Assembly: GCA_039621445.1 (NCBI GenBank)
Contig: CP154954.1
Location: forward strand, 24,998,954 to 25,062,953
Reading direction: 5' to 3'
Length of the DNA: 64,000 nucleotides
Source: Euglena gracilis
Lineage: Eukaryota
Part shown: one piece after another, positions 2,327 through 64,000 of the stretch
How the letters are laid out: each line of letters opens with the position of its first letter
How positions within the stretch are numbered: position 1 is the stretch's first letter
Made by a program: the position numbers and the translations under genes
Notes under the pieces: generated by a model
Database searches by the model: none
Seen by the model: only the letters and a program-made list of their open reading frames with translations
What the model was told of the DNA's origin: nothing

Positions 2327-3330
2327 GATTGTGCACTGAAAAAGGGGGGGCCAGGGCATTCTCCAAAGAACCTTGGGCACCAAGTCTTTGATAATGGGCT
2401 GTGAAAGCCTCCACCCCCTTCCATTGGCCAATTTCACAAACTTCTTGGGCACAAAAGCCCAATTTTTTTAGCAAACCAACCCCTGCCCCTCTGGTGGAGT
2501 GGGGTCCCCAAACCTGGGGGGGGGTACCCCCTGTTTGGTCAAAAAGTCTTTGGTGATAGAAGCAATGGTATCTGCCTTAATGGCTTTGTAGGGGGGTTTT
2601 AACGTAATTAAAAGGGGGCCCCCAGGTTTCATAAAGAAACGTGTTGCTGCCACATAAGACAACATTAAATGAAAGGGCCTGATTTGGGGGCACTGGGGAA
2701 TGGATACAACTCGCTCCCACTTGTGGAGTTTTTGACCTTTGCGTTTAATTTTGATGTAGGGTGCCCCCCCAACACCCTGGTGGTTCTTTGGACCTGTGCC
2801 AAATCAGAACTTCTGTATAAACAGAGGATTCGTGAACAGAAAATGAGTTGTGTACGCAATGTACATATATCAGAGGGCAGGGGGGACTGTGCCAGCCCCA
2901 GGAGGATTGGGAGGGGATCCCAGAATGCACCATATTTCTCCAGGTTCTGGTTCCAAAGCCTTTTGTAAGGTGCCAACATGGCATGGAACCTCAGGCCCCC
3001 AAAGCCAGGGATCAATAGCATAGCACTGTATGCATTGCGTGCTTGGGCTTTTGAAAATTGGAACAGTTGAATTAAAGCGTCAACCACTTGGTCAGTGGTG
3101 GTTTCAGGGGGGGGTACCCCCATTTTTTCCAGAATAACCCATAAAAGCGTAAAGGCACTTTGGTACCTTTTCAAACTGGGGTTTCTTCCCAGGAAATCTG
3201 TAATGATTGAATTTTGTATTTGTTTCCCCTCCAAAATTTGCCTCAGCAAATCATGCAAAGGAGGGGTCACCTGGGTGGTGGCATTTTTTCCCCCCTGCAA
3301 TTGGTGAACATACCCTTGTAAGGGGTGATT
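2300..3330 (-). pseudogene. DIRS tyrosine recombinase (frameshifted)
   Basis: LCLYRSSDLA (catalytic R) and GQW...AHY motifs across ORFs 2665..3645, 2468..2665 and 2046..2474. Confidence 0.9.
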
Positions 3331-3700
3331 TTCAGGCAGCGGGTCCCTGGTACTTTCATTTTTATTAACTGGGGCCACCATGTGGCTGAATCCCAGTAGG
3401 GGGTGACCATCAAAACTTTGGTTTGTGGAAACATTTTTAACCTGGGGAGAAATTTTTGGATTACAGACCAGGGGGGGTTTGCATAAAGTCCTCCCATGTT
3501 GTCTAGTGGGCATTGCAATGCATCCACTGCTGTGGCTTCCCAGTGGGGCCACCTGGCCACAAATTGTGGCAGTTTTTTGTTGCCTGGTGAGGCAAAAAGG
3601 TCTGTTTTCAGGTTTATGTAATTTTTGAACTGCTGCCTCAGCCATTGAAAAAGTTGGGGGTCCAGGGAATAATCCCCCTGTCCATTTCCCACATGCTTAT
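3267..3700 (-). pseudogene. Dam-like DNA N6-adenine methyltransferase domain of DIRS
   Basis: DLFAS...DAL...LYANPPW...P.W...WW signature in ORF 3267..3818, at the usual DIRS MT position after RNase H. Confidence 0.85.
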
Positions 3701-5056
3701 GGGGTCTGCCAGGCATTCCTGTGAAGGAACCCACTTTACTTGTAGGTTTATGTTGTGTTCCATGCACCATTTGAAAAAGGGTCTTTGCATGGAATTGAAG
3801 GGGTCTTTTCTGCCCCACCCTTTTGTTAAGTAATAGTAAATTACTTGATTGTCACTGACAGGGACACAGTTTCTCCTGGCTGGCTGAGGCTTTGAACTGT
3901 GCTTATTGGTGCACTTAATTCCTTGACATTTATGTGCAAAATGGATTTTTTCCTCAAAAATTCTTGCACAATTTTTCCTGTTCGAATGTCCAGCCCCCCC
4001 CAGGCATGGGTGCTGCTGTCTGAGTGCAACTCTCTGGTTGCACTTTGGGGGAAGGGTCTGCCACCCCATGTGTCCAGCAGAAGTTTTATTTCTCTTAATT
4101 GGTCCTTTATTCTTTGAGAAATGGGGTGTTTTGAGTCCCAGGGGGCTGCGGAATTTTCCACCAAAAAATTTGCCAGGGCATCCGTAAAGGCCCTTAGAAA
4201 GGGCAAGGCCATTATATTGCATCTGATTTGGCCAAAAATGGCAGCCAGTTGCCTTTTTGACATGTAATCTTTTTTTCACTATTTTTCCCAGCTCCTTTTT
4301 TACTGTTTTTATTTTCTGGGGGGGCACCTGTAATTTTCCCTCTTGGAAGTTTAGCTGAAATCCAAGATGATTTACGATTTGGGTGGGCTGCAGGGTGGAC
4401 TTTTTTACATTGATTTTGAATCCTGATTTGATTAAATCCTTGACCACTGTGTTCAGGTGATTTTGTAAGATGTTTTGCGTTGGGGCCACCAGTAAAATGT
4501 CGTCCAGGTAAATAAATACCTGGATGCACTTTTTCCTCCACAGCTTTTCGAATGTCTTCACTACAGACATAAAAATTTGGGGCATTACATTTAGGCCAAA
4601 ACAGCCTGCCTGGAATTCCCAGGTCTGCCCCCCCACCTGATGTCTTAGAAAGGGCCTTAGGGCCTGGCTCACTGGGATGTGGAAGTAAGCATCCTTCAGG
4701 TCTATTTTTGCTGCCCAGTGGCCTTTTTCTAACACTGGAAAAATGTGCTGGATGTGATCCAGCTTGAAAGGTTTCACTCGGAATCGTTGATTCATTTCCC
4801 TGCAATCGCTTATTAATCTCCATTCTGTCTGCTCCCCTTCTGGTTTCGAAAGCAGAAACCAGGGGATTAGGTGCTGGGTGGTTGAATCACTCACCCTCTT
4901 TACGGATCCAGATTTTTCGTAATCCAGCAGTATTTTTTCTGCTTGGTGCACGTTCAAATTTGCCCTGGGTTTTGGGTGGGTGGACAATTTTGGTGGTTTT
5001 ACCCAGGGGGGTTGAATGCCATCCCTGATTAGTTGACATGTTGTTGGGGGGGGCAT
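3700..5056 (-). pseudogene. DIRS reverse transcriptase / RNase H (frameshifted)
   Basis: KIDLKDAYFHIP, FGL and YLDD motifs. RNase H motifs SDSS..WG, HINVKEL and LADPIS are in shifted frames. Confidence 0.95.
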
Positions 5057-5691
5057 TTTTTGTCAACCATTTCAGGCTTTTTTGCAGCCTTTGATGGAGG
5101 GGGGTGTCTTCCCACTTTTCCTCCATGCAATTGATTTCTTGAATCAGATGATTGTGGGGGGGGGGCTGGGCTGGAGATGTTGGACCTTTTAGGCTTTTTT
5201 GCAGCCTTTGATGGAGGGGGGTGTCTCCCTCTGTTTCCTCCACTGAATTTATTTTCTGGACAAGATGATTCTGGGGGGGCTGGGTTGGGGGTGTTGGACA
5301 TTGCACCCCTAGGTCCCCTAGGGCTTGGGCCCTTGGAAAAAGAATTTTTTTCTGGGGGGATGTGCATGCACTCTCTCCTCTCTGCTCATCTCTCTGGATG
5401 ATCTTGTTGTTGGGAGACATACCATAGGTCTTAAGGCCCCTGTTTGGCCTATCTGGGCTTCTCCATGTTGATGTGGTTGGTTGACATACCATAGGGGGGT
5501 CTCTGTGGGTCCCCCCCTTGATTGATTGATCGGGAATTGAGAAATAAATGTAGGAGGGGTTCCTGCCCCTCCCACAAAAAGGGCCACTGTGGGTCCCTTT
5601 TCCTCCTGAGGCTGGGGCATTAAAGGGGCCACTGTGGGTCAACCTTTCCCCCTTTTTGGCAGAGGGCCTCTGTGGGTCCCTCGGGGGATTT

Positions 5692-12227: not shown

Positions 12228-12541
12228 TACACCAAAAAGTTCGTTGCCGGCTATGTGGCCGGTTCGGACTTGGAGTAGGGGAGCCCGTGGTCCGAGGGCA
12301 CGGACCTCTGGGCTGATGAACAGATGGAGGTAAGACCTGATCAACCTTGCCCCCCCTGCCCATCCGCCTTCATGGTCAGTACCCGTAATTATTTCGGGTC
12401 CCCTACCCCTCAATCCACATTTCCGCTCGGAATGCTGAGCAAAGTAGGACAGGGTTCATGGGAGAGCTGGCATGCAAACGTATTTCCGCCAGACCATTCA
12501 CTTTGTGTACCACTAATGGAAATACTCGTCCAAGCGGAAAT

Positions 12542-13133
12542 TGTTGGGGGATGAGGACCCTCGCCCGGGGGGGCTGCCGGGGCCGCAACCACTTTTTTCT
12601 GGCCCTGGAGGGCTCAGGCCAGAGCCTTTCTGAAATTGGGCCCCGTTTTCGAACATGCCAACCGGCGGCAAAGGGGGTGAGGTGTGCCCCCCCGACCCAG
12701 GGTCCCCAGTTGCCCTGCGTAGGATCTTTTTTTCCCTCCACTGTTGGTTTTCCCCCATTTTCCAACTTTTGGACCAAAGGGTGGACAAAAACAAAACCAA
12801 CCCACCTACTTAGGATCAAACAGCAGAGCACAACAAACCTGGGACTTGAGAGGGTGAGTGAGTACCTTGAGTTCAGGTGTTGGGTGGGAAATATATATGG
12901 AAATGAATGCCTTTATTTCCTTGGATAATTGAGTTGTCCTCTTTGATCTTTCAATTCTCAATTGACTTTTCTGCCCTTGTGATTCTCAAATCGAATTCTC
13001 AAATTCTTCCTGGAATTTGCTGGGGTTCCAATTCCACTCGCGTGGCGGTTGACTTGCTTGGGTTATTTCTACTGGGGGGTTGCTGGGAATTTTCTCGGAA
13101 ATTTTTGGCTGCCGACGCCAGCGGCAGCCGACA
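12542..13133 (-). repeat. 3' LTR of non-autonomous element copy 1
   Basis: Direct repeat of 19414-20005, with the PPT adjacent at 13134-13144 (minus strand). Confidence 0.92.
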
Positions 13134-13179
13134 CCCCCTCCCTTGCGACGTCAGTCGGACCCGTTTTTCTGCCCCCCTC

Positions 13180-14782
13180 TGTTTTCTGAGTGTCTCCTTT
13201 CACCCACTGGGGGGTCAAACTTGAAAACTTTTCCTTTCCAGCAGCACTCACTTTCCTTCAGCACAGCATAAACCAAGACTTGAAATCTTCATCTGGCGCT
13301 CAGGCGTTCCAGGAGTCAAGGAGTTCAGGACAGTTGCAGCTGCAAAAAACAGAAATTTTTGTAATTAGGATAGGCGCCTCCTAATTCAATTTTGGGTTTT
13401 AAATTTTAAACCTGGCGCCGCCCACACACCCCTCTCTGGACACTGCGTGCCCACTGCCTTCGGCAATTTTTTTGCGGCGCCAAAATTGGCCTTTTTTGGG
13501 GGGACGGCTGAAATTTGCTTTTTTTAAATTTTTGAACGCTGAGTCAGGGGTATAATACAGCTGACCGGGATTTAGTCCAACAATGCCAAGCACCAATAGG
13601 GGGGCCACAGGGCCACCAGCCCACCCCAGAGAGGGGGCCAGTGGGGGGCTGCCAGGGGGAGTCCCAGGGCCTGTGGGTAGGCCCCCTTGTAGCGGTCCTC
13701 CCATCTGGGCCCTGGGCCTGGGCCACTGGCCAGCACAATCCCAAAGCCAATCTTGCAGGGAGGGGGCTCAAATTGAACACACAATCACTGCAAAGAGGCT
13801 TCACCACTTGAATCACTGAAATTTGGGCTGTCCCCTGTGCCGACCTGGAGCCTGAGGTGCACTTGTGGGGAGGACCCTCCTTTCATCTTTTGCCTCCTCA
13901 TTCTCCTTTTTGCTGAACTTGAAATTGGATTGGGAACTTTTGCCAATTTGAAACATTGACTTATCCTTCCACAGACAAATGCCACTTGTACTGGCCATTT
14001 TGTGGGGGGGACTGTGAACCCTGCCCCAACCAACTCAAACAACGGCGTGGCACAAGGATACTCCAGCATTCTGACAACAATGTCTTGAAGACCTTCCCAC
14101 CAGGGGGCAGTAACCCACTTTGGGACAACCAACACCGCATGACCATGATCCTTCTTCAGCTTGCGGATGACATTTGCAATGAGGCTGAATGGGGGATTTG
14201 CCCACAACAATCCAACAATGGAATGTGTCCACTTCACTGTGAAGGAATCTTCCACAAATTGTGACCCAGGTCCCCACCAGCATTTGAATCTCTTGCCTTC
14301 TTCCAAACTGAATGCATCAATGTTGGGGGTCTTCAATCCCAATCTGTCAATGATTTCAACAACATACTGAAATTTTACTGCATACAGCTCAGATTTCCAG
14401 CCCAGTTTTCTGCAGCATTGATCTTCCCAGATTTCTTCATCATTGACAATCCCTGACTTGACACTTTCTGAAATGTCCATTTATTCTGGCCAAACTGGCT
14501 GACTTTTGTCCTCCAGGCCTTGCGCAACAATTGAAGTCTTTGTGTTTTCTGAGTGTCTCCTTTCACCCTCTGGGGGGTCAAACTTGAAAACTTTTCCTTT
14601 CCAGCAGCACTCACTTTCCTTCAGCACAGCATAAACCAAGACTTGAAATCTTCATCTGGCGCTCAGGCCTTCCAGGAGTCAAAGAGTTCAGGACAGTTGC
14701 AGCTGCAAAAAAACAGAAATTTTTGTAATTAGGATAGGCGCCTCCTAATTCAATTTTGGGTTTTAAATTTTAAACCTGGCGC
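13180..14782. repeat. ~240-bp direct repeats (13180-13418 and 14543-14782) bracketing the methyltransferase ORF
   Basis: Near-identical TGTTTTCTGAGTGTCTCC...TTTAAACCTGGCGC blocks. Confidence 0.9.
13785..14480 (-). CDS. Dam-like DNA N6-adenine methyltransferase, 231 aa, uninterrupted
   Basis: IDAF...DSF...W...LLWANPPFS...AVLVVPKW...WW, the same motif series as the DIRS MT domains in this window. ATG start and a basic C-terminal tail (KRRMRRQKMK). Confidence 0.85.
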   Translation of the reverse strand: MDISESVKSGIVNDEEIWEDQCCRKLGWKSELYAVKFQYVVEIIDRLGLKTPNIDAFSLEEGKRFKCWWGPGSQFVEDSFTVKWTHSIVGLLWANPPFSLIANVIRKLKKDHGHAVLVVPKWVTAPWWEGLQDIVVRMLEYPCATPLFELVGAGFTVPPTKWPVQVAFVCGRISQCFKLAKVPNPISSSAKRRMRRQKMKGGSSPQVHLRLQVGTGDSPNFSDSSGEASLQ

Positions 14783-17700
14783 TGCCCGCACCCCCCCCCC
14801 CGAACAAAAACGAGGAGAGTGAAATTGATTTTTTTTGTGGGGGGCGAAAATTCTGTGTTTTCTTTTTGAAACGGGTCTTGTCGCTTTTTTTTTGTTGAAA
14901 ATCAGTGTTACGAGTCTGACCCCCCAGCCATGATATCGGGCACCTTGGGGGACTCTGAGAAATCAGGTCTACGAGGGAAGCCCCCCCACCCCTTTCCTCC
15001 GACAAGCATGGGGAATGGGTCTTTGAACACAAAATCTGAAAATTCTGAGTGAAACCAACTCTGGGCACTCCACCCCAAGGCCTAAGTCCCACGCTACCCC
15101 CTTGGTGAAAATCCTTTTGGCAGCTTTCATTGTGTGAAACTTCATTTGTCGATTTTTTTATAAAAAATTTAAAAAAATCAGGGACCTTGGCCAACAGTGC
15201 CTCAAAAAATGAATTGTGTGGGAAAAAGAAAAGGAGAACGAGAAACCTAGGCATTCCTTTCCAATTCGGGACAGTTGGGTAAGAAAAAGGCGAACGGTGA
15301 GGTGCAAAGGTAAGACGGTTGGTTATATATGGCGGGAATAGTGTACAGACGGGTGTGCGGGTTCGTGTGCAGTTGTGTGTTTTGTGTGTGTGCACGCTCA
15401 CTTCCTTGTCATGCATTCCAAACCGAAAATGACTGGGTCGATCGATTTTTTTTGAATGCAAAGAAAACAGGGCTTCACATTGGCCCTCAGCCACTTTCTC
15501 ACAGGGCTTCAGTGCCCACGTGGCTCGTTTTTTTTTTTTCATTGGCCCACACCAGGGCCTATGGACGGAGGAGGGGTCATCTCCAGTCCAGGGTCCCCCC
15601 CTCCCCCCGAGTTCGGATGCCTCCAAGCTGTGTTCCATGAAAAAATGCCTTTGACCAATATCCAATAGTCCGGACCGAATGAAAAACTGAGTTTTAAAAC
15701 TCCAACTCGTTTTGTCGTCCACCAGAAAAATTATCAAAATCCAACGTTTTTTCCAACCCTTTGTGTAAAAATCCTCCAGAAACAAAAATCCTCAAAAAAA
15801 TCAAAAAACTGAGTCCAACCCACAAGTCCAGGGCCTACAAAAGCCCTCAACAAGATCCAAAATTCCAACTGCCATGTACAACAAACAAAGTCCAACCGAG
15901 ACCAACCAACCCAACAGAAACAACATCCAGCAGCATACCGTTGCATAGGGGCCAGGCCATTCCAGCCCAACCCTGGGCACAACCAATTCACAGCCGAAAC
16001 CAACCGATTCGGCTTGCCAATTAAAATTCACTGCCCCCCCCCCCCCAATCGCACGAGGCAATGGGGGTCAAATGGTCAAATGACAAGGCAAACTCAAAAA
16101 TACTGAAAATTCAAATCCAATTTTCTCAGCCAAAGCAATTTTTCGCTGCCCCCCCCCCCCCAGTCACATGGGGCCATGGGGGTCAATCTGGCTTCAGCCT
16201 CCAAACAAAAAAATAACAAAACTGGGCCGTAATATCCAGACCGGCTGAAATCACACACATGTCAAAAGACGGGCCTTCACAATGTCCCCCCCACCCCGTC
16301 AACCAATGCGGGGAGGGCCATGGGTTAAAAATTCCTGGCTGCAAAACTGAAATCCCCGTTCGATGAAAAAAATTGAGAAAATGGAAATTTCATCAAACCC
16401 CGTCACAATCTGGGGTGTGACCAAAAACAGTCACGGTCACAAAATGACGCATTCCTGTCCCCACCCAAACGTCTCACAGGGTATCCAATTCTGAGTCAAA
16501 AAATTCCAACCGTAAAACCAAATCTGATTTTGATCCAGCACACCATCAAAAAAACAGAGCTCAACACAGTCCCCCCCCCCCAGCTGCACGAGGAGGGAGA
16601 AAAACTGGCTCCAAACCAAAGCAAAATTCTGAGACCCGAAAACATGAAAAATCTGATTCAGCGCTGTGGGAGCAGCCAACCTGGGCCTGGACCTGGGCAT
16701 TGGCCGTGCATCGGGCCACTGCCCACTGCAGGCTCTGTGAGGTCCTTAAGCTTCTCTCCCCAGCACTTCAGTAAATACCACAAACAATCCACAATTGTGA
16801 TCATCATCGTAATCATGTGATTCAATTGCTTGGGTCTCATTGATGTCATTGAAATCTGTTCTTAATCTCATTGAAATGTTCATCCCAGTCCTTGAAGTTG
16901 ATTCTTGGCAAACTCTTGCACTTTTTGAATTTAATAAATTCACTCAAATTCCTTGGTGACTTGTCTGCTTTAGATCACAATGTAATTCAATGTCAATGTA
17001 ATCATCATTGTCCCAGTCAACAAAATTGGACTTGTTGAACAAAACAACCTTGAAATTCTCAGACTCTTTGGCGTTGATTCTCTTCGGTGCTTCTGTTTGA
17101 TTGATTGCTTGAACCTGCATGACAAAGCACACACACACGCACAAAATTCACCACTGGCAACACAGAAGGGAGATTTCTGAATTTTCTTACTGAACCGAAC
17201 CTGAAAATGCCACTGAACTCTGAACCAAAAAGGCACTTAAAATCTGTATCTTGATCCATCCAATGGGTCACACGAAAACTGTGTATGCAACCCCCAAAAC
17301 TGTAAAAATTGCCCTCAGGAGTTTTGCATTGTGAGGCCTCATGTGATTCTCCCTTAAGCAGACTCCTACAGCTGAAAAAAATGCAACAGAAAGTGTTACC
17401 CACAGATCAACAGATCTTTCACTGAAAAACTGAACTGAATGATGATGATGCCACTGATGGGCCCAAAAATGGACTTACCTCAGGGGTGTCTTTTCCTCCT
17501 GGTTTTATCCACCTTGGTTCCCACTGACTGAAAATTGAAACCTTTCCTGAGCCCTTAGATGGGTGGCCACAGGGGTGTTTATTCCTGGCCTGGGTCCAAC
17601 CCCACCCTTGGAACCCCTCTTTGCGCGCTTTCCAAAAAACTTTTTGGTTCGAGTGGTCCATCGGAGGTCTCCCCCCTCCTCAGGAGTTGGCAAAAACCCA

Positions 17701-19401
17701 GATAAAACCTGCCACAGGACTGCTGGGCTGCCACACTCGAAAACCACAAAAAAACTGGACTGAAAAATCCCAAAAAACTGTGCCGATTCTCCAACATATG
17801 TCCCTGTCCGGGGGTAAGTTTCTCTCTGAAAAAACTGTCCCGTGACAAAAAGGACCAGCAAAAACACAAACAATGATCCCACCTGAAATGCCTGATTTGT
17901 CCCCGTCTGGGATGGTGACACATGTCAATGCCGTGCCCCACCCCAAATGACATTCGGGACAAGAACCGAAAACTGAAAACTCTGAAACTGAAAATGAAGG
18001 ATCATTGATCTGGCTGCCTGAACACTAGGAGAAAATTCCCAAGCATCGTGGCTGGGCGTCTCCATTGATGTGGAAAGCAACCGGGGAAAAAACATGCACC
18101 CCAGAAACCAGATTCAAAATGTTTGACTTGGCTGCTTTTCCATAAGCCAAACTCTGTGAACTGAAAATCCAGATTTAAAATTCTGGTTGATTACGCATCT
18201 GCCTCCAACACCAGATCACCATGAAAAACGTATCGCAAAACAATCACAATGCCACAAGCAAATCACAAAAACATACTGATCTGTAAAGTGCTGTGCGGTG
18301 CCAGTCAGTGGTTAGACCTGTGAAAAGACCTCGAAAAATCACCACCACCACTGATGCGGTGGAAACCACCCCCAGCTGTTCCAGGGATTTGCAAATCAGT
18401 CCCAACCCCACCAATCCTGAAACCAACTTGGTCTCAAAAATTGAAAGTCATTCCAGCTGTTTTTGGCAGGCCTCCAGAATTTTTTTGCCTGTCTGAATTT
18501 CCTTGGCTGTGCGGCAAAATCCGAGGAAGATTTCTCAGAAGACACTGATGACGGCTGCAAATTTGTGACATGTCCAGAATTCAGATTCACAGGCACAAAA
18601 TTTTCTGGACTTAGAAATTTTTCATTGGGCTGTAACTTTTCAATGATTTGCAATTCAAAGATTTTCAGCCGTTCCTCCAGAATCTTTTCTTCACTCTCCA
18701 GCCGTTTTGACAGAGCCTCGCCCTTCTCACACAGGGACTGGATGCTTTCAGAAAAACGATTTTCAATTTCACTGCAAGTTCATGTGTAAAGGTCATGAAA
18801 ACTATCTGCCAAATTTCTCAGACGGGTTACAACTTCAGCCATCCGTCCCTCCAAGTGGCTGGACTCACTTTGGCTGGGCACTTCCTCCAGTTTCGTCAGT
18901 CTCTCGTTCAGGGAAAAAGTGTTTAAAAATAATTCTGTGATACCTGCCTCAACTTTTTGCCACCACTCATCCCAAGGGTCATTAAAAGTTTCAGGTTTTG
19001 TGACCTCTGAAGTTTCCACACTGTCTGATTTAACACTCACCTGTCCTGATTCAGATTCACACGCCACACCTCTGATGTGCAAAACATTTGGACAAGCAAA
19101 TCTCTGTGGTTTAACTTCAGGTTCTCTTGGCAGTGACCTTTTTGGGCTTACCCCTGACGCTTTACAAGATTGACATGGAGAAGCTGAGGCAGGGCCATGA
19201 GAATGTCCAATGGCTGCTTCACATCTGAGTTTCCAAAACTCCCTCTGAGACGCCAGATATTCAGCCTCCCTTTTTCTTTGTTCCTCTGTTTGGGTATCAC
19301 TGAATTCAATTCCCAACAATTTGAAGTGGTCACAGTATTCTTTGATTTCTTTTTCATCAAAGGAATCTAAAAATTCTTCACTGACAGAGTCAGTGAAGCC
19401 A

Positions 19402-19413
19402 CCTCTGCTACCA
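19402..19413 (-). promoter_or_regulatory. tRNA-iMet primer-binding site
   Basis: Minus strand reads TGGTAGCAGAGG directly after the 5' LTR. Confidence 0.85.
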
Positions 19414-20005
19414 TGTTGGGGGATGAGAACCCTCGCCCGGGGGGGCTGCCGGGGCCGCAACCACTTTTTTCTGGCCCTGGAGGGCTCAGGCCAGGGCCTT
19501 TCTGAAATTGGGCCCCGTTTTCGAACATGCCAACCGGCGGCAAAGGGGGTGAGGTGTGCCCCCCCGACCCAGGGTCCCCAGTTGCCCCGCGTAGGATCTT
19601 TTTTTCTCTCCACTGTTGATTTTTGCCCATTTTCCAACTTTTGGACCAAAGGGTGGACAAAAACAAAACCAACCCACCTTCTTAGGATCAAACAGCAGAG
19701 CACAACAAACCTGGGACTTGAGAGGGTGAGTGAGTACCTTGAGTTCAGGTGTTGGGTGGGAAAGAAATATGGAAATGAATGCCTTGATTTTTTTGGATAA
19801 TTGAATTGTCCTCTTTGATCTTTCAATTCTCAATTGACTTTTCTGCCCTTGTGATTCTCAAATCGAATTCTCAAATTCTTCCTGGAATTTGCTGGGGTTC
19901 CAATTCCACTCGCGTGGCGGTTGACTTGCTTGGGTTATTTCTACTGGGGGGTTTCTGGGATTTTTCTGGGAAATTTTTGGCTGCCGACGCCAGCGGCAGC
20001 CGACA
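19414..20005 (-). repeat. 5' LTR of non-autonomous element copy 1
   Basis: Direct repeat of 12542-13133. Confidence 0.92.
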
Positions 20006-21149
20006 AAATCCGCATTCAAAATTTCTCCACTAAAGTTGAAATTCTAATTGACACTGGTTATCGCATTGAATTGCTTTTTCGGTTGGGATTGATACCGACC
20101 CCGCTCTTGGTAAGCGCCAAGAAACCGAGCAAAGTTACAACCGCGGATAACACCCCCATGTGCGGTGGTGTTTTTGGGATGTGTGCTCGAGATACTCTTG
20201 CCCATCATTCCAAAGCATCACTCACCCCCCCCACAATTACAACATTTCACCAATATTTGGGGTTACGAGTCCGGAATTCACAGGTCTGACGTAATTTTGG
20301 GGTACCCATTTTTACGCCAGTACCGATTGGTTGTGGATTGCCACTCCCACGGCTTGCGCACAGCACCCACCACTTCATTGCCACCCAAACCACCATTACC
20401 GCTGGCGTCAGCCATGACGACCACCACTTTTTCAACACCGTTATCCACAACGGCAACACCGTTATCCACCACACCAACAACCGGTTTGCACACCCGGGGT
20501 ACGGAGAAAGCCTCCCCCCTACCCAATGACACACCCACATGCGTTCCACATGAGGTAGGGCAAGCGATTAGCGTTACCCCCGCCGTTCCACTGGGTTACA
20601 AGACGAAAGCCCAAAGGCCTGCAGTGATCACGGTGTCGAGTAGTCGCCCAGCTACACCACCACTCCGTTTCCCACCAGTTGTGCCGAATCCAGGCACACC
20701 TGTACAGGACTCACCGGCTAAGGCCATCGACACCCACTTACACGCACACCCGTCACACCATCACACTTCCTACCAATGTGTGCACTGCAGGAGAATTTAC
20801 ACCCAATCGGATTTCGATTGTGGATGTTTAGTTCAATGTACGACACTAATCGCAATTCCGAATACGGAATACGCACGCCATGATACACTTGGTTGTAGCC
20901 CGCAATGCGCGGAGATACACCGAGTTCTCCAACAACGCGGATTAACCTCGTTGTTTGGAAACGCGAAAAGCGTTTTGCCTAATCACCATCCCGAGTACAC
21001 TTGGCATTAATTTGATGCGGAATGGGGAAACCCCCAGCCTGTCCAAACTCCCTTGGGATTAACCCTTGCGGTAGTAGAAGACAGCCCGCATGTTTGTGGA
21101 TCCATTCATTGTGTTTCGTCACTCCTACCCGGAAATCGGGTGCATGAAA

Positions 21150-21590
21150 ACGCGAAAGGCGTATGGAATGCTTTTAATTTTGGTCAATATCGCATTTTGG
21201 AACGATTGTTTTCCAAAATCGCGAGATTGGCTGATTCTTTTGATTTGGCATTGGAAATCGATGCCTTTTCATCCAATGCACATGCCCGTTTGCCACGTCA
21301 TTAGTCACAACACTCGAACGCATTTGATAAATTTTGGGGATACGGTGTTATGGATGCACCCCCCTCCAAAACTTATCGAATGTGCGGTTGAGAAAATTCT
21401 GCGGGATGAAGCCCGTGGAGTTATTCTCAAACCCATCATTCCGGAAGCGTAATGGTTCACTCGACTATCGTATGTGTGTTTTTACTGGTGGGATTTACCC
21501 ACTAATGTACCGATTTTTGAAGATTTTTGTGGTAAAATATTACCACCCTTGCAAGAAATCATTTTTCGTGTATGTTTCTTCGATGCATTT
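21150..21590 (+). pseudogene. Dam-like methyltransferase domain embedded in gypsy pol, between PR and RT
   Basis: EIDAFSS..ARLPRH*..NAF..W / VLWMHPP..LI..AVEKILRDEARGVIL.P...*WF..L, which runs into the RT frame 21474..22148. Confidence 0.7.
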
Positions 21591-24552
21591 GGAATGTCCG
21601 AATTTGCGGTGCCGAGGAAGCTCGGTAGCCCCAGGGATACCCTGGCGGTTTCCGCAGTCATCGAGAGTGCAGGTCAGCATCCTAAGTCAGCCGAATTCTG
21701 TTCGCGGATCACCCGCGAATTTCACGGTGTGCTGGAAAATCCAGTATACGCGTGCGACATCGACCCCGCGATACGGGGTCCGTTCGGTGTTTGTAAGATC
21801 GAGCTTGAGGAAGAAGCTAAACCAATGCACCGAAAATTTTTTCGATGTTCGGGAGAACGCAAACAAGCTCTCAATGAAATGATTGAGAAGCTTATTCAGC
21901 GCAAGTGGATCGTACCCTCGAAAAGCGAGTGGACATCCCAGGCATTCGTTGTTCCTAAACCTCCAGACCCCTCCGGTCAGAAGAAATGGAGACTGGTACT
22001 GTATCAGCGGTACCTGAACTCCCAAACAAGGGATGATCCCTTCCCGCTCCCCCTGATCGAGGATTTGATCACCAAACAATCGGAAAACCGGTTGTGGTCA
22101 ATTTTTGATCTGGAGGACCGGTTTTCACCAAATGCACTTGCACCCTGACTCACAAACATACACAGCATTCGTGACATCCAAGGGTGTGTACCAATGGACG
22201 GTACTCCCCATGGGTGTTAAGAATGGCCCAGCCATGTTTAAGCGCATGATACAATGGGTTCTACGCGATTTACCGTTTGCCATTGTGTACATTGATGATG
22301 TGCTGGTGGGAACACCACCATCAAAAAAACATGTGCTTTTCGCGAAAGGCGCGAAAATGCATTTGTTTCGGATACTTATAAAATTTTGCCGTCACATCCT
22401 CAGCAATTGACAGCGGAAAGCCGCTCCGAGTAAACTCGAAGCCATCAAGAAATGGACCACTGAGATAATCAAACCGATTACACACCTCAAAGGATTTTTG
22501 GGATTAGTCCAATACTACGCGATATATATGAAGGACTTCGCGAAAATCGCGGTTCCCCTCACCAAACAGCTCAAAGACCGGGCTGTTGACAACACCAAAG
22601 TCATTTGGGATGACCAAATGCACGTGGCCCTTGAGAAAATCAAGGTTTTGCTTTTGGAGAATGTTGTCCTCGAAATCGCGGACCCGTACAAACCATATGT
22701 GCTGGAAGTCGACAGCAGCGATTACGCTGTTGACGGAGTTCTTAGCCAGCATAACGCGGTGAATGAACTCCGACCTGTGGCTTTCTTCAGCAGAAAGCTA
22801 CAGGGCGACGACGGAAAAGGTCCAGTCAAGTGGAGTATACGCGAGAAGGAAACCGACGCAATCGTGCTTATACTCCAGAAATTCCGAAGCTGGGTAGCCA
22901 GTAGCCTCGTCCAGATCCTCGTCAAGACCGAGCATGAGAGTCTACAGCACTTGTACACCGAGGATTTGAACAAGGCCATGTCATCGGTCGGAAGGCGATG
23001 CAGATGGCATGAATTCTTGAGTCAATTCACCCTTGTGGTTATATATACCCCTGGTCATAAACAAAAAGTAGCGGATCCGCTCAGTCGGGCCCCTTGGTAT
23101 TACCATGGGAACCCGGATGAGGGAGACGCGACTTTTCATGGAAGTCAGGAAGCTGACTAGTACGCACGTCGAAACGACGCTGCGGACAATCTTTTGGATT
23201 CTTTTCCTGTTTCACAACGAAGCACGTCCGGACCCCGGCGTATTACACGCACGGAGTCCCCTTCCCCACTGTTCTTTCACGAATGGGATTATAGTCGTTA
23301 TCCGGTGTATGACACCATTGTCACCAGACTTCGTAATGGCGAAGTACTGGACAATTACACTCTTTCACCTTTACGGTTGGTTTTTCGCAATGAATCGGGT
23401 TACAAATATTGTATTACCCAGGACCTGGTTGATGATGTGATTTTTTGTGTTATCACAACCATGGTCACCCTGGGGCCCCCAAACTTCTTTCGTTGGTGGG
23501 CCGCAGGTATTGCACAACCCTGAGCGAGAAAGAGCTTTACTCACGCTGTTTGCGAAAAGCGCAACGGTGTCAAATTTGTCAAGCGGTAAAACCCGCAGAG
23601 GTACCCCCCCCCCTGGTACGATGGACTTCTTCCCCGTACCCCCTGACAATTTTACATCCCTCTGCATGGATTTTCTGGAAATAGAACTGTGCAAAGGAAC
23701 GGACGACAAAATTTACGATTACGTTTTTGTTGTCGTCTGCAGGCTGAGTGGGTACATTGTAGCCATTCCATGCCAGAAGTCAAGGTTGACTGCCCAAAGT
23801 TTGGCAACTATATTTTTGGAGAAATGCATTTGGTTAATAAGTTTACCGAATGAAATCGTGAGTGATCAAGACCACTTGATTTCTTCAAGGTTTTTCACCA
23901 CTTTGTGCGGTTCACTCGGAATCGAGCAGAATTTTCCATTATATACCGACCCAAAGGCAATGGTAGAGCCGAGGCAGCCGTGAAATCCGTTGTGAATATG
24001 CTTCGCCTTTCACTGGCTGACTCGCGCAGCAACTGGATATCAGTTCTACCATGGTCTTTGTTTTATATCAATACCCTACCATGGTTGGTTTTGCCTCACT
24101 CCCCCTATAAATTAGTTTTCGGACGGGACCCTCCGGCCAAAGGGGATGTCCCTTCGGAGAGACCCGCCCGAACGAGTGTCAGTTGCGAGACCTGGTTTGC
24201 AGAAGTAGAAAATCTACGTTCTTCAGTCCAGAAGCGCGTGACTGATATTCATGGAACTAAACGGAAATCGTTTTTGCAGAATTTCAAGTCACCTGTGTAT
24301 AGTCCCGGTGACCGCGTGTGGGTACGGAATAGCCGTACTCACATGCAGTCTTCCAAGCTGGACCCCCTCTGGCTCGGCCCCTGTGAAATCCTAGAAAGAC
24401 TAGGTACCAGCGGGCGTTACAAGGTTGCATTACCGAATGGTGTTGAGGACGTTCATATGGACGATTTCAAACCATACCTGTAGCCACCGGATGGGAAACC
24501 CATCCCGTGTCTGCACTTCAAACCCCGTTGCAGATTACCTGAGACGGACGAC

Positions 24553-31689: not shown

Positions 31690-32500
31690 TTCTTCCACTT
31701 GCAAACCAGCATTTTTCCACCATAAAACCGCAGCTCGTCTGGTGCTGTGGGGTTTCCAGTGGGTCGTGTCTACCCCCCCTCTTGCAGAATTTCTTTCACT
31801 CTTTCTGAATTTCAAAGGTCTTTTGCCATCCAAAGACCATAACAAATTATTTTTGTGCCCAACCTTGTGGGCTGTCCTTTCCACATACTCTTTCATTAAA
31901 TGCCACAGGCTTATGAGGGGTGTGTGTGGCAAATTCAAAACTTCCACCCATCTTGGGATTTGCCACCCTTTCCTTTGCAATAAAATGAAAACTTTTTCAC
32001 CCACGAAACTGATTTTTCGGTGTTTCCTGGCTAGATCAACTCGCCTGTGGAGGGCCAAAAGCCTCCAACAGATGATGAGTCTGTTTCTCAGCTCTTTCAC
32101 AGAGAGTTCTGAGAGGGGTTTCGATTGTCTGATCATGTTGTCTAGCAAATCAGTGGGGTCCCAGAAAAGGGCATACTTGCAGACATTGGAATTCCACTTT
32201 CTTTTCAATGGAGACAAAAGAGGGGAAAACCTCAATGACCCAAACCCTGGGAGTAACAATGCTGCTGCATATGCATTCGTGCAGTGTTGAGGCTGTTAGA
32301 AGCCAGATCAAGGATCGCCTCAGCCATCCTGTGGACTGTGCAATCCTGCAGGGCACCCCTTTGTTCAACAATTGGCCCACCAAATCCATGAAGGCTGAGT
32401 CATATCTTTTGACATTTCCGAGATTTTTTATGTAAGTGTCGATACTGGACATCAAAAATTCCTGGGATTGTAATATTTGCCTGACACAATCAAGCAGGCC
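31690..32500 (-). pseudogene. DIRS family 2 tyrosine recombinase (main part)
   Basis: KYALFWDP, LALHRRVDLA and WKPHSTRRAA motifs. Confidence 0.85.
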
Positions 32501-32509
32501 AAATTCCAC

Positions 32510-32941
32510 CTTGGGGGGGCATCTCCTCCCCCCAGCAGTTGGTGAACAGACCCCATTGGGGGGGGGTACCAACAAAACTTTGCTGCCTGGCTGCCTGATT
32601 GACATTAATTGGCGCCACCATGATGTTGAAGCCCAGTGGGGTACGATCAACAGACATTTCAGGTCTGGGTTTAGCATCAATCTCTGAACCCACTGGGGAA
32701 TGATGCTCCAGGGGGGGTTTGCATAAACTTGGGGGAGGCCCCTCAAATCTGCCCTTAAGGCATCCACCAGCAAAGCCCCTTGGTGGGGGTATCGACAAAC
32801 AAACTTGGGGAATTTTTTGTTGCTGGGTGCGAAAAACATGTCCACCTCTGGGGACATTTTCATTCTGAAAAATTGAAGAATTTGGTGAAAGATGTTCGGG
32901 TTTAGGGTATAATCCCCTGGGTCCTTTTGCTCTCTGGTCAA
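32510..32941 (-). pseudogene. DIRS family 2 Dam-like MT domain
   Basis: VDMFFA..N.K..KFV.RYP..DAL..VYANPPW..VPHW..SWW. Confidence 0.85.
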
Positions 32942-34350
32942 GGAGTCTGCCAGTTGTGGGAACCCAAACCACCTGCAAATTGATTTGCTTTTCTTGGCAG
33001 TGATACAGCAGGGGTTTTAAGATGGAATTTAGGTATGGCTTTTTGCCTCCCCAGTTTGTTAAATAACTTACAGCCACCTGGCTGTCAACATGAAGCACAA
33101 TTGTTTGCTTTGGTTTGGCTAGTGCTTTTACAGTTTCCACTGCAGCTTGTAATTCTTTTTGATTGATATGAAGGACATGCGGGTCCCTCCAAAAATCCTG
33201 CACCTTTTGGCCTGAAGCTTTGTCCAGCCCCCCCCCCCCACTGCCATTGTTGTCCTGTCTGAAAAGAGATTCTGAGAGGCCTGGGATTGAAATGCCCTGC
33301 CAACACCTGGCTGTAAAAAAGCCTTTAATTCCACAATTTTCTCCTTGACCCCCTGGGGAATGGTTAGGGTGTGGTCCCAACCCCACTTTGTGTGCAGGTC
33401 CACCATTTGCAAAGTTGATCTGTCAGAATTCTGAGAAAAGGCATTGAGACTAAATAGCTTCTGACCTGACCCACAATCGAACTGAGTTTCCTGCAGCTCA
33501 TTTTTTGTGCTGTGAGCACCTTGCCTAGCTCCTTTCTGAGGGACTTTTTTAGCTTTTCTTGAGGAATTTCTAATTTGCCTTTTTTTTAGATTGATCCACT
33601 GGCCCAAATGCTTTATTTTCTGTGTTGGTTCCAGACAGGATTTGGGGAGGTTTAATCTGAAACCTGCCAGTAAAAGGTGTCGTTTTATTTCTGACAAATG
33701 TTGGGCTGCTGTCTGTTTTCTGGGGGCTAACAGCAAAATGTCGTCCAGGTAGATGAAAACCACCTTTCCCTCCTTTCTCCATTTTCTTTCCCAGACTCTC
33801 ATGAGAGTCATAAACTTTTGTGGCAGGCTGCTGATGCCAAAGCATGCAGCCTGAAACTGCCACGTTTCCCACCCACTTGCATGCAAACATGTTTTTCCAG
33901 GCTGCTGGGCAGCTTTAGGTGAAAATAAGCATCTTTCAGATCGATTTTCCCACAGAACCAACCCTTTTTTAAAATATGGGAAAATGTTTCCCATGTGTTC
34001 CAGTCTGAACTTCTGGGGGGTGAAGTGGAGATTTAACTGTCGACAATCTCAGATTAATCTTTCTTTTGTATTTTCCCCCTCTTTTTTGGTGATGAAATAA
34101 GGGACAAAATGTTTTGCCTCCTCTGGGGAGATTTGCCTGGTTGCCCCTGCACATTCGTATTCCCTCAGAATTTTCTGGGCAGTCATTATTCCTTGGGGAG
34201 TTTTGAAGGGAACTTTTAAGGACATCTGAGGGGGGAGGGGAAGATCTGCCCTGACCCCTTCCCTTATCAGGTTTAATACCTCTGTGCTGGCACCTGCCTT
34301 GACCAAATGAGGAATGCTGGCCTGTAGGGCCTTGTAGGGCGGCACCCCTG
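32942..34350 (-). pseudogene. DIRS family 2 RT / RNase H
   Basis: FQAACFG, IYLDDILLL, HINQKELQA and VDSQV in shifted frames. Confidence 0.9.
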
Positions 34351-34803
34351 GGTGTAATGTGTCTGGGGATTCCACAGGCCCCATCACTGGGGTCCTTCCC
34401 CCTGGCTGCCCCATCACTGGGGCCCCCTCTGGCTGCCCCATCACTGGGGCTGCAGTTGGCCCTGCCATAGGGCTTCCCAAAGACATGCTTTCCTCCTGTT
34501 TTTGAATAATGGGGGAAGGTCTGTGTCTGTTGTGCGGTGGTACATATAATGCTGGGCTGAATATCTTCTGGGGGGGGCCTGCCTGAGCCAATCTTAGGCC
34601 TCCCCCCCCCCAAGAGCTGATGTGTTGTGGATGGTCTGGATGGTATTGGCCACCATTTGCCTTCAGGGCCCTTTTGGCCTCCAGTGGCACTCTGGCCTGC
34701 TTGGCATCCATTGGCCTTTTCTCCAGGACTTCTCTGTCCTTCTGGATTCCCCATATAGGCCATCATGGCCTGTTTTGGGCATTGTCTTGCTGCTCGTGTG
34801 CGG

Positions 34804-37800
34804 TGTCGGCTGCCGCTGGCGGCGGCAGCCAAAAATTTCGCAAAAATGTCCAAGAAACTCCCGGTAGGAACCACCAAAGCAAGTCAACCACCACGCGAGT
34901 TGAATTGGAACCCCAGCAAAAAATCAAGAAGAATTTGAGAATTCGATTTGAGAATCAGAAGAGAAGAAAAGTTAATTGGAGACTTGAAGAGCAAAAAGAT
35001 CAATTCAAATATCAAAGAAAGCCAAGGCATTCATTTCCACATTATTGTCCCACTCAACACCTGAACTCAAAGGTACTTGCCCACCCTTTCAGTCCCAGGT
35101 TTGTTGTGCTCTGCTGTTTGATCCTAAGTAGGTGGGTTGGTTTTGTCTTTGCTCACCTTTTGATCCAAACGTTTGAAAAGGCAAAACAGTGGAGGCTAAA
35201 AACGATCCTACGCGGGGAGACAGGGGGACCTGGGTCGGAGGGGCACACCTCACCCCCGTCACAGTCTGTTGATTTACTGGAAAACGGGGCCTACTTTCAG
35301 AAAGGCCCTGGCCTGAGCCCACCAGGGCCGCAAAAGGGAAGTGGCCCCGGCGAAAGCGGCAGCCCCCCCGGGCGGCGAGGAGGGTCCTCCAATCCCCCCA
35401 ACGTGGTACGCAGAGGTGGCTTTACTGACTCTGTCAGTGAAGAAAATTTTGATTCTGTTGATGACAAATCAGTAACCCCCAACATGGTTAGCAGAATCTG
35501 TTTCAATCTTGAAGGCGGTTCTTCAACTCTGAATGGTGAAACGGAAACAGATGACCATCCTGTTCTTTTTGAGGATTCTGACAGTGAAAATTTTGAGGAG
35601 GGATTCAACCAGCATGAGCTCAGTCATCTTGAGGGACTTCCTCTGACTGTTTGGCGTCAGAGGATTGAATTACGAGTTGCGCAAATTGACAAAACTGTCC
35701 GAGGTTGGTGTTTTGACCTTGACACCCGTTTTGACAAAAATTCCGTGTCCCTGTTTGGGAGAGACAAGGCTCTGACAAAACAGGTGGTTGACGTGCAATG
35801 TTTATTAAGTGTGGCAAAAGAAGAAATAGGACGATTGGCGGAACAAATAAAAACGTTGGAACTGCAAATCGCTGAAAAGCTGCAGCCCAGTGAAACAAAG
35901 TTGCCAAGTCCAGAAAATTTTGTGTCTGTGAATCTAAATTCTGACATGTCACGAATTTGCAAACATCATCAGTGTCTTCTGAAAAATCTTCCTCAGATTT
36001 TGCTGCACAGCCAAGAAAATTTCGACAGACGAAAAAATCCTGGAGGCCTGCCAAAAACAGCTGGAACAAATTTCAGTTTTTCAGACCAAGTTGGTTTCAC
36101 GATTGGTGGGGTTGGGACTGGTTTGCAAATCCCTGGAACAGCTGGGGGTGGTTTCCACCGCATCAATGGTGGTGGTGAGTTTTATTTCAGCAGGTCTAAC
36201 CACTGACTGACACAGCACAGCACTTTACAGTGTCGAGTAAATTTCAGTGATTTGTTTTGTGATTTTTGTTTTGTACTTCCTTTGTGTGATCTGGTCGGAG
36301 GCAGATGAAAAGTCAGCCAGAAGTTTTAAATCTGGATTTTCAGTTTTCAGAGTTTGGCTTATGAAAAACAGCCAAGTCAAACATTTTTGAATCTGGTTTC
36401 AGGGGTGCAAATTTTTCCCCAGTTGCTTTCCACTTAAATGGAGACGCCCAGCCACGATGCTTGGTATTTTTCTCCTAGTGTTCAGGCAGCCAGATCATAA
36501 ATTTCAGTTTCAGAGTTCTCAGTTTTCGGTTGTCCCGAATGTCATTTTGGGGGGGGGGCACGTTGGCATGTGTCACCATCCCCGACGGGGACAAGTTAGA
36601 CATCTCAGGTTGGATTTTTGTTTGTTTTTTTTCTGGTCCCTTTTGTCACGGGACAGTTTTTCCAGTGAGAAACTTCACCCCCGGACAGGGACACATGTTG
36701 GAGAATCGGCACAGCTTTTGAGATTTTTCAGTCCAGTTTCATTGTGGTTTTCGAGAGTGGCAGCCCAGCAGCCCTGTGGAGGTTTTATCTGGGATTTTTC
36801 CAAATCCTGGGGTCGGGTGGAGACCTCTGATTGACCACTCGAACGAAAAAAGTTTTTGGGAAAGCGCGCAAAGATGGGTTAGAAGGGTGGGGCTAGACCC
36901 AGGCCAGGAATAAACACCCCTGTGGCCACCCATCTAAGAGCTCAGGAAAGGTTTCAATTTTCAGTCCAAGTGGGAACCAAGGTGGATAAACCCAGGAGGA
37001 AAAGACACCCCTGAGGAAGTTCATTTTTGGGCGCATCAGTGGCATCATCATCATTTGGTTCAGTTTTCAGTTAAAAATCTGTTGCTCTGTGGTTTGCACT
37101 TTCTGCGGCATTTTTTCGGCTGTGGAGTTTGCTTAAGGGAGAAAAACTCAGAAGTGGGGGACGCCTCACAATGCAAAACTCTTAAGAGCAATTTTTGCAG
37201 TTTGAAATTTGTTGCAGCAGTTCTGGTGTGACCGATTTGATGGATCAAGATACAGATTTTTTAGTGCCGTTTTGGTTCAGAGTTCAGTGGCATTTTCAGG
37301 TTCGGTGCAGTGAGAAAATTCAGAAATATACCTTCTGTGTTGCCAGTGGTGAATTTTGTGCGTGTGTGTGTGCTTTGTCACGCAGGTTCAAGCAATCAAT
37401 CAAACAGAAGCACCGAAGAGAATCAACGCGAAAGAATCTGAGATTTTCAAGGTTGATTTGTTCAACAAGTTCAAGTTTGTTGACTGGGACAATGATGATT
37501 GCATTGACATTGAATGACATTGAAATCTAAAGCGGACAAGTCATCAAGGAATTTGATTGAATTTATTGAATTCAAAACGTGCAAGAGTTTGCAAAGAATC
37601 AACTTCAAGGACTGGGATGAACATTTCAATGAGATGGAGAAAAGAACAATGACATTTATGAGACCCAAGCAATTGAATCACATGATTACGATTGTCATGA
37701 TCACAATTGTGGATTGTTGTGGAGTTGCAGAATGGTGGGTACATTTATTTTACTCAAGTGCTGTGAAGCGTAATGGCCGACCAAAAGAGCCAGCAGTGGG

Positions 37801-50467: not shown

Positions 50468-50779
50468 GAGGGGGGTACTGGGTAGTCGACCGACTAGTCT
50501 GTCGACTACCCAGTTGCCCTACCGACTAGTCGACCGACTAGTCGGTCGACTAGTTGGTACAAGGGGGGGGGGTACTGGCTATGGGAGCAACTGGCTAGTC
50601 CTAGTCGGTCGAGTAGTCGGTCGACTAGTCGACCGACTAGCCACTCTAATGTACCAAAAGGGGGGGGGGGTCACCGACCTTTTAAGCCCCCCCCCAACAT
50701 TGATTTGACTTGCTTTGAACTAGAATCTCAAAGAAAGCACGTCTAAAGCCTTCAAAGTTGTCAAAAAACATCCCTTTTG

Positions 50780-52000: not shown

Positions 52001-52004
52001 CTAC

Positions 52005-52114
52005 ACAAAAATCGTCCATGTCACCCGGACACACGGTGTGTCCGGGTTATGGGCGCCGCAGGCGCCCATAACCCGGACACACCGTGTGTCCGGGTTACAA
52101 TGGACGATTTTTGT
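52005..52114. repeat. ~110-nt palindrome (perfect 35-bp inner stem, GCA loop, 15-bp outer stem)
   Basis: 52023-52057 pairs with 52061-52095 and 52005-52019 pairs with 52100-52114. Each arm is itself palindromic. Confidence 0.95.
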
Positions 52115-53975: not shown

Positions 53976-54046
53976 GACATGGGGACGTTCTCACGTATGC
54001 CTCAGCGGTATTATCCAAATGCCTACCTCTGACGCATCACAGTGGC

Positions 54047-63560: not shown

Positions 63561-64000
<440 letters not shown>

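Follow-up and report, generated by a model that had tools for sequence, protein, structure and literature searches.

A candidate nested terminal-repeat element in Euglena gracilis with a free-standing DAM/PCIF1-type methyltransferase as its only gene

To which mobile element does a methyltransferase gene belong that lies unbroken, and unfused to any other enzyme, inside a retrotransposon lacking genes for reverse transcription and integration? This question is raised by a stretch of 64,000 nucleotides of Euglena gracilis DNA (contig CP154954.1; the whole stretch is called the window below), in which a preliminary description made from the letters alone had assigned an open reading frame (ORF) of 231 amino acids to a 7.5-kb non-autonomous long terminal repeat (LTR) element. 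Our analysis places this ORF in a discrete 1.6-kb insertion within that element. We consider it moderately probable that the insertion is itself a nested, multi-copy, non-autonomous terminal-repeat element, the only gene of which encodes a free-standing methyltransferase of the DAM/PCIF1 type. The anatomy of this unit, its presence or absence among host copies, its multi-copy state and its protein family were observed directly, and the protein fold is predicted.

The host, here called element A, is a real non-autonomous LTR element resembling the large retrotransposon derivatives (LARDs). It has a sister copy, element B, in the same window. The parts of the two elements are as follows.

12542-20005, minus strand: host non-autonomous LTR element A, 7464 bp.
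19414-20005, minus strand: 5' LTR of element A (by blastn), 592 bp; the LTR pair is 97.1% identical.
12542-13133, minus strand: 3' LTR of element A, 592 bp.
19399-19413, minus strand: primer-binding site (PBS) of element A, TGGTAGCAGAGGTGG, starting with TGG, directly after the 5' LTR.
13134-13144, minus strand: polypurine tract (PPT) of element A, AAGGGAGGGGG, directly before the 3' LTR.
20006-20009 and 12538-12541: target duplication of element A, ATTT, 4 bp.
14792-19398, minus strand: internal region of element A, without pol; a coiled-coil ORF lies at its 5' end.
34802-40414, plus strand: sister element B, 82-85% identical to A, with the empty site at about 39770-39774.

The LTR ends of element A read TGTCGG...CAACA. 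Within 12.4-20.3 kb no stop-to-stop ORF of ≥ 110 amino acids matched a Pfam family (175 of the 180 such ORFs of the window were submitted), and 19 retroelement proteins or pieces of such proteins, used as tblastn queries, matched no pol sequence in element A or element B. Across the window, ARAGORN detected no tRNA gene and Rfam matched no family.

The methyltransferase ORF is flanked by direct repeats, which blastn aligned at 13180-13432 and 14543-14796 (254 bp, 97.2% identical). With the sequence between them, these repeats form the unit, or cassette, under study.

13174-14791, minus strand: nested insertion with G-runs at its flanks, absent from sister B and from empty-site contigs.
14543-14790, minus strand: 5' terminal repeat of the mini-element, TGCGGG...AAAACA; its outer base is set by the empty-site joints and by a joint of 13426 to 15340.
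13180-13426, minus strand: 3' terminal repeat of the mini-element, TGTGGG...AAAACA.
13429-13437, minus strand: PPT-like purine run, AGAGAGGGG, 2 nt upstream of the 3' repeat.
13785-14480, minus strand: stand-alone ORF of 231 amino acids for an adenine methyltransferase of DAM/PCIF1 type, with its stop codon at 13785-13787.

Both repeats begin with TG (14790-14789 and 13426-13425) and end with CA (14544-14543 and 13181-13180). The 5' repeat contains an A/T-rich box and also, at 14713-14703, a T-run with CAG after it. On either side of the ORF, tblastn detected no trace of protease, reverse transcriptase (RT), RNase H, integrase or recombinase; no gag remnant was recognisable in the 1.61-kb unit, which has simple direct repeats only and neither inverted terminal repeats nor an internal complementary region of the DIRS1 type.

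The limits of the unit follow from element B. Positions 12546-13173 of A align by blastn with 40414-39774 of B, and positions 14792-18679 of A with 39770-35836 of B. Since the two alignments come within four bases of each other in B, this copy is without 13174-14791, both repeats included. As a loss through repeat-to-repeat recombination would have spared one of the two repeats, the difference is explained by an insertion into A and not by a loss from B. Contigs from public sequencing run X1 gave the same picture: at least nine of them, at five listed joints, pass from 13173..13177 directly to 14791 and skip 1613-1617 bases, and more X1 contigs link 13175-13179 to 14825-14832 with other letters between. 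The skipping contigs represent further genomic copies of the host family in which the site is empty. In addition, host position 15340 is joined in a single X1 contig to 13426, the base with which the repeat starts and which corresponds to 14790. The shorter arm of this contig has 30 letters; the joint points to a possible second site of insertion.

The unit is not confined to this locus. The 1618-base stretch was represented in 20 run rows from 15 studies, with about half of the sampled words in 19 public run rows and a fraction of 0.10 in one metatranscriptome. Run X1 yielded 6292 contigs with ≥ 90% likeness on 12500-15500, and its listed variable sites were each covered by 1-26 distinct contigs in the cassette versus 1-76 in the host parts; summed contig depths were not used as copy numbers.

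The ORF, its repeats and the anatomy of the surrounding LTR element are far beyond chance, and the preliminary description of them was confirmed in each point put to the test. The 7.5-kb element does carry LTRs, PBS, PPT and a 4-bp target duplication and lacks RT and integrase; the 231-codon ORF with its NPPF motif is unbroken, sense-oriented and bracketed by direct repeats, which we now measure at 254 bp; and the gene is indeed stand-alone, with no fusion to RT or RNase H. What fails is the attribution of the gene to the 7.5-kb element, because the discrete 1.6-kb insertion that carries it is missing from sister B and other copies. The reservation that the cassette might be a one-off captured fragment is answered by the contig counts, by which the unit is multi-copy.

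The ORF has the same orientation as the 7.46-kb host element and lies ∼640 bp upstream of the host PPT. Its NPPF motif comprises residues 95-98 (14187-14198), and the protein carries a basic tail, SSSAKRRMRRQKMKGG, near its C-terminus. In the window copy, a TAA stands immediately 5' of the ATG. At site 14483, every contig from runs X1, X2 and X15 has C where the window has A, so that the family reads GAA in place of this TAA. Protein P0001, a gene call of 284 amino acids on a 1460-nt contig (98% identical), agrees with the GAA reading. The frame upstream of the ORF contains no ATG, and hence the start is unchanged despite the difference.

The encoded protein is a member of the DAM family carried by eukaryotic transposons, which falls within the PCIF1-like N6-adenine methyltransferases. 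When 1.84 billion representatives were searched exhaustively with HMMER, 1457 homologues were retrieved at E ≤ 1e-3, 229 of them at E ≤ 1e-10, and Pfam Dam (E ≤ 1e-3) was found in 36 of the 45 homologues scanned. The only Pfam family matched by the ORF itself, below the cut-off, was Dam (PF05869; 15.3 bits, E 0.016), for which relatives such as P0045 (37.8) and P0079 (42.2) score above the cut-off. The residues conserved family-wide are all retained in the ORF (D55, F57, G70, W84, W93, N95-P96-P97, K107, P120, W122, F148 and W162). A word-based protein search for longer, fused forms returned none; as HMMER later recovered fused gypsy forms, this null result says little.

By prediction, the protein adopts a class-I S-adenosylmethionine methyltransferase fold closest to that of PCIF1/CAPAM. 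With an AlphaFold2 model built from a 65-sequence alignment (pLDDT 84.1, pTM 0.71), Foldseek returned PCIF1/CAPAM first (6irw_B, E 2.4e-5), then KsgA/Dim1 and DOT1L. A structure search independent of Foldseek (VIA) likewise ranked 6irx_A on top (Z 11.3, rmsd 3.0, 141 residues), the next match having Z 8.8. Erm, KsgA/DIMT1, METTL5, T4 Dam and EcoDam fell at Z 7.5-8.8 (T4 Dam 7.9, E. coli Dam 7.5), and M.TaqI reached 7.3. Sequence searches against solved structures gave no useful match, either for the ORF or for the 65-sequence profile (one chance match, E 1.6). Iyer et al. (2016) place the methyltransferase domains of DIRS1 elements in the PCIF1 clade.

To place the ORF among transposon-borne relatives, the window offers two DIRS-type arrays for comparison.

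3270-5062 (array extent also given as 2668-5062), minus strand: DIRS-type array with RT and a Dam-like domain, in broken overlapping frames.
32153-34048, minus strand: DIRS-type array with RT, RNase H and a Dam-like domain, in broken overlapping frames.

The cassette protein shares 21-22% identity with the two DIRS-type domains (tblastn E 1e-6 to 3e-6). The polyproteins of DAM-bearing Ty3/gypsy elements matched the ORF at 6e-23 (L001), 4e-21 (P0152) and 7e-18 (L002) in tblastn. P0152 (1674 amino acids) has Dam at 536-660 and RT at 808-973, followed by RNase H and integrase; L001, a metagenome locus, has integrase and a weak, sub-cut-off chromodomain match. As judged from sequence comparison, the ORF domain is much nearer to the DAMs embedded between protease and RT in Ty3/gypsy elements than to the window's DIRS-type domains. 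A FastTree of 152 domains, which is a rapid tree of a short domain and leaves many forks open, unites the window ORF and P0001 with P0004, P0005 and P0006 (SH-like 99). The gypsy-embedded domains stand elsewhere within the same wider group, to which the DIRS domain of the window is a remote outgroup.

The nearest relatives, P0004-P0007 (37-45% identity), are ORFs of 192-242 amino acids that start with M and lie on contigs of 1009-1380 nt. A basic motif, S-x-x-R-R-x-R-R-K/Q, precedes the stop codon by a short distance in the window ORF, P0004, P0005 and P0006, and it terminates many other listed homologues; P0007 has a weaker basic stretch only. This tail was absent from the three gypsy-embedded domains inspected. 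The solo form thus appears to recur among the nearest relatives, which are known from protein sequences alone. A metagenome scan with a 6-row alignment found 16 loci: two are chromovirus-like DAM-LTR elements (L001 and L002), one (L011) is an ORF of 702 amino acids with the domain at its end, and the other 13 are Dam genes of prokaryote or phage type. There was no close copy among the 16 loci, and no solo unit with terminal repeats among the 12 that were scanned for direct repeats. L001 (7454 bp) begins and ends with the same 91 bases: a chromovirus-like DAM-LTR unit of 7363 bp has here been assembled into a closed circle, with either a collapsed LTR or a tandem.

A separate set of 15 DAM homologues (P0015, P0054, P0067, P0072, P0081, P0087, P0088, P0093, P0094, P0097, P0101, P0102, P0109, P0120 and P0146) shares an N-terminal extension of ∼90-260 amino acids. 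All 15 end a short way past the DAM domain, in most cases with a basic tail. No Pfam family was found for the extension in the seven of the 15 that were scanned, and a Pfam search covering the N-terminal extensions of 14 homologues reported Dam only, even at E ≤ 1. On sequence grounds, these proteins look like a third architecture, so far undescribed, in addition to those of the DIRS and gypsy contexts. As to taxonomic affinity, the ESM Atlas clusters nearest to the DIRS-type RT (3641-5062, minus strand) are mostly Euglenozoa (scores 0.97 and 0.96, phylum known for three members each), and a cluster near the methyltransferase ORF is also Euglenozoa (0.87).

This affinity would tie the window to the Euglena elements of a 2026 preprint (Fernandez-Moreno et al., bioRxiv 10.64898/2026.05.21.726589). 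The preprint reports DAM domains in non-DIRS LTR (Ty3/gypsy) elements and 10,030 eukaryotic DAM proteins, 53.9% of them with retrotransposon features. It also reports at least four transfers of DAM from DIRS to Ty3/gypsy elements, and interprets the 46.1% that are 'orphan DAM-only' as degenerated remnants. In the literature searched we found no non-autonomous LTR element with only a methyltransferase, and the accessible text of the preprint describes no LTR-bounded DAM-only unit; the cassette family may be among its orphan DAM-only sequences.

Several statements of the preliminary description about the protein can be judged against these data. That the ORF encodes a homologue of Dam-like adenine methyltransferases is upheld by the NPPF motif, the HMMER homologues and the predicted fold, and the possibility that it has no methyltransferase fold is countered by the AlphaFold2 model with its Z of 11.3 to PCIF1. 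The proposed profile search had a mixed outcome, positive for HMMER with its 1457 homologues and under the cut-off of 28.1 bits for Pfam Dam (15.3 bits). Where the description pointed to DIRS1 elements as the usual carriers of Dam-like domains, the domains nearest to the ORF by tblastn are those of Ty3/gypsy polyproteins. The premise of novelty is weakened by the preprint, with its DAMs in non-DIRS LTR elements and its many DAM-only sequences. The description of the gene as a 'retro-mobilised 6mA writer' is not supported and stays conjecture; according to the same source, related DAMs produced no gain of N6-methyladenine (6mA) in E. coli.

How might such a unit have come to its present site? 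The ∼1.61-kb mini-element, with its ∼248-bp TG..CA repeats, would have been a complete double-stranded DNA copy when it inserted into an unrelated non-autonomous LTR element, in the 3' part of that element and 40 bp upstream of its LTR. Two complete repeats, TG..CA ends and a purine run give the unit the look of integrated cDNA, since the termini of an RNA would be limited to R-U5...U3-R. For its copying and insertion the unit would depend on RT and integrase provided in trans, and the protein would be translated from an mRNA with its start inside the 5' repeat. The enzyme may then methylate adenine in the element's own cDNA or RNA:DNA hybrid, generating 6mA, or in RNA. By analogy with what has been proposed for DAM-LTR elements, such methylation could favour expression or escape from silencing.

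Some signs of variation and expression bear on this proposal. The ratio of observed to expected CpG is 0.14 in the ORF, 0.24 in the cassette and 0.65 in the window, and the cassette copies differ mainly by C>T and G>A; both fit a repeat that has long been under cytosine methylation. Run X20, a leaf-litter metatranscriptome and the only certain RNA library, contains a 238-nt contig over 13807-14044 with three differences. A 1279-nt contig of run X15 spans 13519-14703; it ends in an A-run near 13519 and, at 14703, in a T-run followed by CAG plus 23 further unread letters. This contig could derive from a trans-spliced, polyadenylated mRNA or from a homopolymer assembly break in DNA. It also holds 63 extra letters at 13631. 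About the same number of extra letters occurs at 13631 in other cassette copies, as seen in this contig and in loose ends of X2 contigs in both directions; the difference is an indel polymorphism in the 3' untranslated part.

A further observation concerns the terminal repeats. At the outer end of each cassette repeat (13183-13195 and 14546-14558, plus strand, antisense to the ORF), following TG, 13 letters match the middle of the euglenoid spliced leader exactly (spliced-leader sequence as given in PMC3621762). The two occurrences come from the two copies of a single repeat and compare with 0.15 expected at ≤ 1 mismatch; the match ends after 13 letters, was noticed post hoc and may be due to chance. 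Spliced-leader RNA as a primer of reverse transcription was considered and dropped, as its 3' end would not pair.

A number of points weigh against reading the cassette as a mobile element with a working enzyme. Diversity of insertion sites depends on one contig junction of 30 letters. The G-runs at both flanks make a target duplication illegible, and the empty-site contigs share ≤ 4 letters across the joint. No tRNA-type PBS follows the 5' repeat: the sequence there reads CAAAGACTTCAATTG... and lacks TGG in its first 5 nt, and the host PBS is absent from the cassette when ≤ 2 mismatches are allowed. The 64 kb contain no autonomous partner with matching termini, no second copy and no solo repeat. 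With regard to the protein, the Pfam Dam score of 15.3 bits lies below the curated cut-off of 28.1, and the label 'solo' for the homologues is a loose one that surely includes fragments. The window copy and the contig majority differ by two synonymous and three non-synonymous codons, so that no purifying selection is seen, and an unbroken ORF of 696 bases is usual by chance, given a divergence of only ∼1% among copies. As for expression, the host parts are covered at similar depth in run X20, where DNA carry-over is possible, which makes its contig only a weak hint of RNA; the RNA label of run X15 is a guess. Iyer et al. (2016) judged the DIRS1 methyltransferase domains inactive, and related DAMs gave no gain of 6mA in dam-deficient E. 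coli according to the preprint. The 1.6-kb unit works like a miniature LTR retrotransposon; because a PBS was not found and the target duplication is illegible, we do not class it as one.

The same evidence has to be read against other accounts of the locus. The cassette might be cargo of the 7.5-kb LARD-type subfamily, a methyltransferase captured together with its flanking repeats and carried along in retrotransposition. Its sense orientation inside element A, near the PPT, would suit such cargo, as would the involvement of the host family in all visible junction contigs; moreover, the identity of the cassette repeats (97.2%) matches that of the host LTRs (97.1%), as expected if the unit travelled with copy A or arrived at about the same time. 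However, sister B and several genomic copies are precisely without the unit and both its repeats, the unit has TG..CA ends and a purine tract of its own, one contig puts the repeat end at a different host position (15340), and close solo relatives are found on contigs of 1.0-1.4 kb elsewhere. We therefore regard capture by the host as distinctly unlikely. Alternatively, the cassette could be a dead remnant, that is, an internally deleted and decaying derivative of a DAM-carrying Ty3/gypsy or DIRS element with an inert protein and an ORF that is intact through youth. This is how the preprint treats 46.1% of the DAM proteins of eukaryotes; the domain has its closest counterparts in gypsy-embedded DAMs, close copies bear no sign of selection, and the low CpG (ORF 0.14 and cassette 0.24 versus 0.65 in the window) would fit a repeat long methylated and silenced. 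Against decay, protease, RT, RNase H and integrase have left no trace beside the ORF, the limits of which hug the domain; the basic tail and stop recur in P0004, P0005 and P0006 at 37-45% identity; and the family-conserved residues, among them D55, F57, N95-P96-P97, P120 and W122, are all kept. Decay is an unlikely explanation in our judgement.

A different kind of alternative leaves the element as it is and changes its chemistry. The protein may methylate adenosine N6 at the 5' end of the element transcript or close to it, in the manner of PCIF1/CAPAM, or merely bind RNA or RNA polymerase II, instead of placing 6mA in DNA. The cap-specific adenosine methyltransferase is the best structural match by a clear margin (Z 11.3 versus 8.8), which agrees with the PCIF1 clade of the DIRS1 domains in Iyer et al., and the preprint reports no 6mA in E. 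coli DNA for related DAMs. In three species, however, DAM-LTR insertions carry more 6mA than other LTR elements do according to the same preprint, sequence profiles call the domain Dam (PF05869), and a common fold is no proof of a common substrate. We rate an RNA-directed role as somewhat unlikely. Our preferred explanation is still the nested, non-autonomous terminal-repeat element with a methyltransferase as its only gene.

Beyond these elements, the window contains a Ty3/gypsy element at 20114-24480 (plus strand) with RT, RNase H, integrase and a Tf2-type SH3 domain in separate frames, in which Pfam detected no DAM. An open frame of 514 amino acids at 52431-53972 (plus strand) has no Pfam match and by eye resembles a tyrosine recombinase (...HVHRNTVAVYH... 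near the C-terminus); downstream of it are weak matches to a PHD finger (sub-cut-off, 53891-54466) and to a C1 domain (56480-57124). Arrays of a 77-bp tandem repeat occupy two blocks, 50663-52084 and 54630-55237, and a 12-bp tandem repeat of palindromic character fills 63502-63998 at the end of the window. A scan for bacterial promoters and terminators is not meaningful here.

More broadly, and only as a doubtful generalization, the unit may represent a recurrent class of minimal LTR-type elements in several eukaryotes. The sole cargo of such elements would be a free adenine methyltransferase with a basic, nuclear or nucleic-acid-binding tail; they would parasitise autonomous RT and integrase and mark cDNA or RNA, possibly in trans, thereby shaping how the host treats the insertions. 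If so, part of the 46% 'orphan' DAM-only sequences would be functional units and not debris, and a DAM-only match in a genome survey should not automatically be taken for debris. Retrotransposons with enzymes for DNA or RNA modification show how mobile elements adapt to the host epigenome; a high-copy unit of repeats and a free DAM gene would show an enzyme module spreading apart from RT and integrase, and such persistence would argue for a function worth keeping. A single ORF of 231 amino acids would also serve as a simple natural construct for testing the substrates of DAM enzymes.

Among known systems, PCIF1/CAPAM shares with the ORF the NPPF catalytic motif and is its best structural match; the ORF differs in having neither a WW nor a helical domain, with 11-13% identity and no match at the sequence level to any solved structure. 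Elements of the DIRS1 type contain a related methyltransferase domain with an NPP[FW] motif. Their fusion to RT/RNase H, tyrosine recombinase, inverted terminal repeats and internal complementary region are all lacking in the 1.6-kb unit. DAM-LTR retrotransposons have the same methyltransferase family and TG..CA repeats of LTR type, and the domains of known context closest to the ORF are of this kind (L001, L002 and P0152, with DAM between the protease region and RT). To our knowledge, DAM domains in DIRS and Ty3/gypsy elements are always parts of polyproteins. In contrast to the DAM of such a polyprotein, the ORF of 231 amino acids is free, with its own start, basic tail and stop, and unlike the DAM-LTR elements the 1.6-kb unit is without gag, protease, RT, RNase H and integrase and shows no PBS. 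Terminal-repeat retrotransposons in miniature (TRIMs) and LARDs resemble the unit as short, LTR-bounded elements without pol that must be mobilised in trans. TRIMs and LARDs are not known to carry an enzyme gene. These elements are defined by a PBS, which was not seen in the 1.6-kb unit, whereas the unit has as its sole content an intact enzyme ORF.

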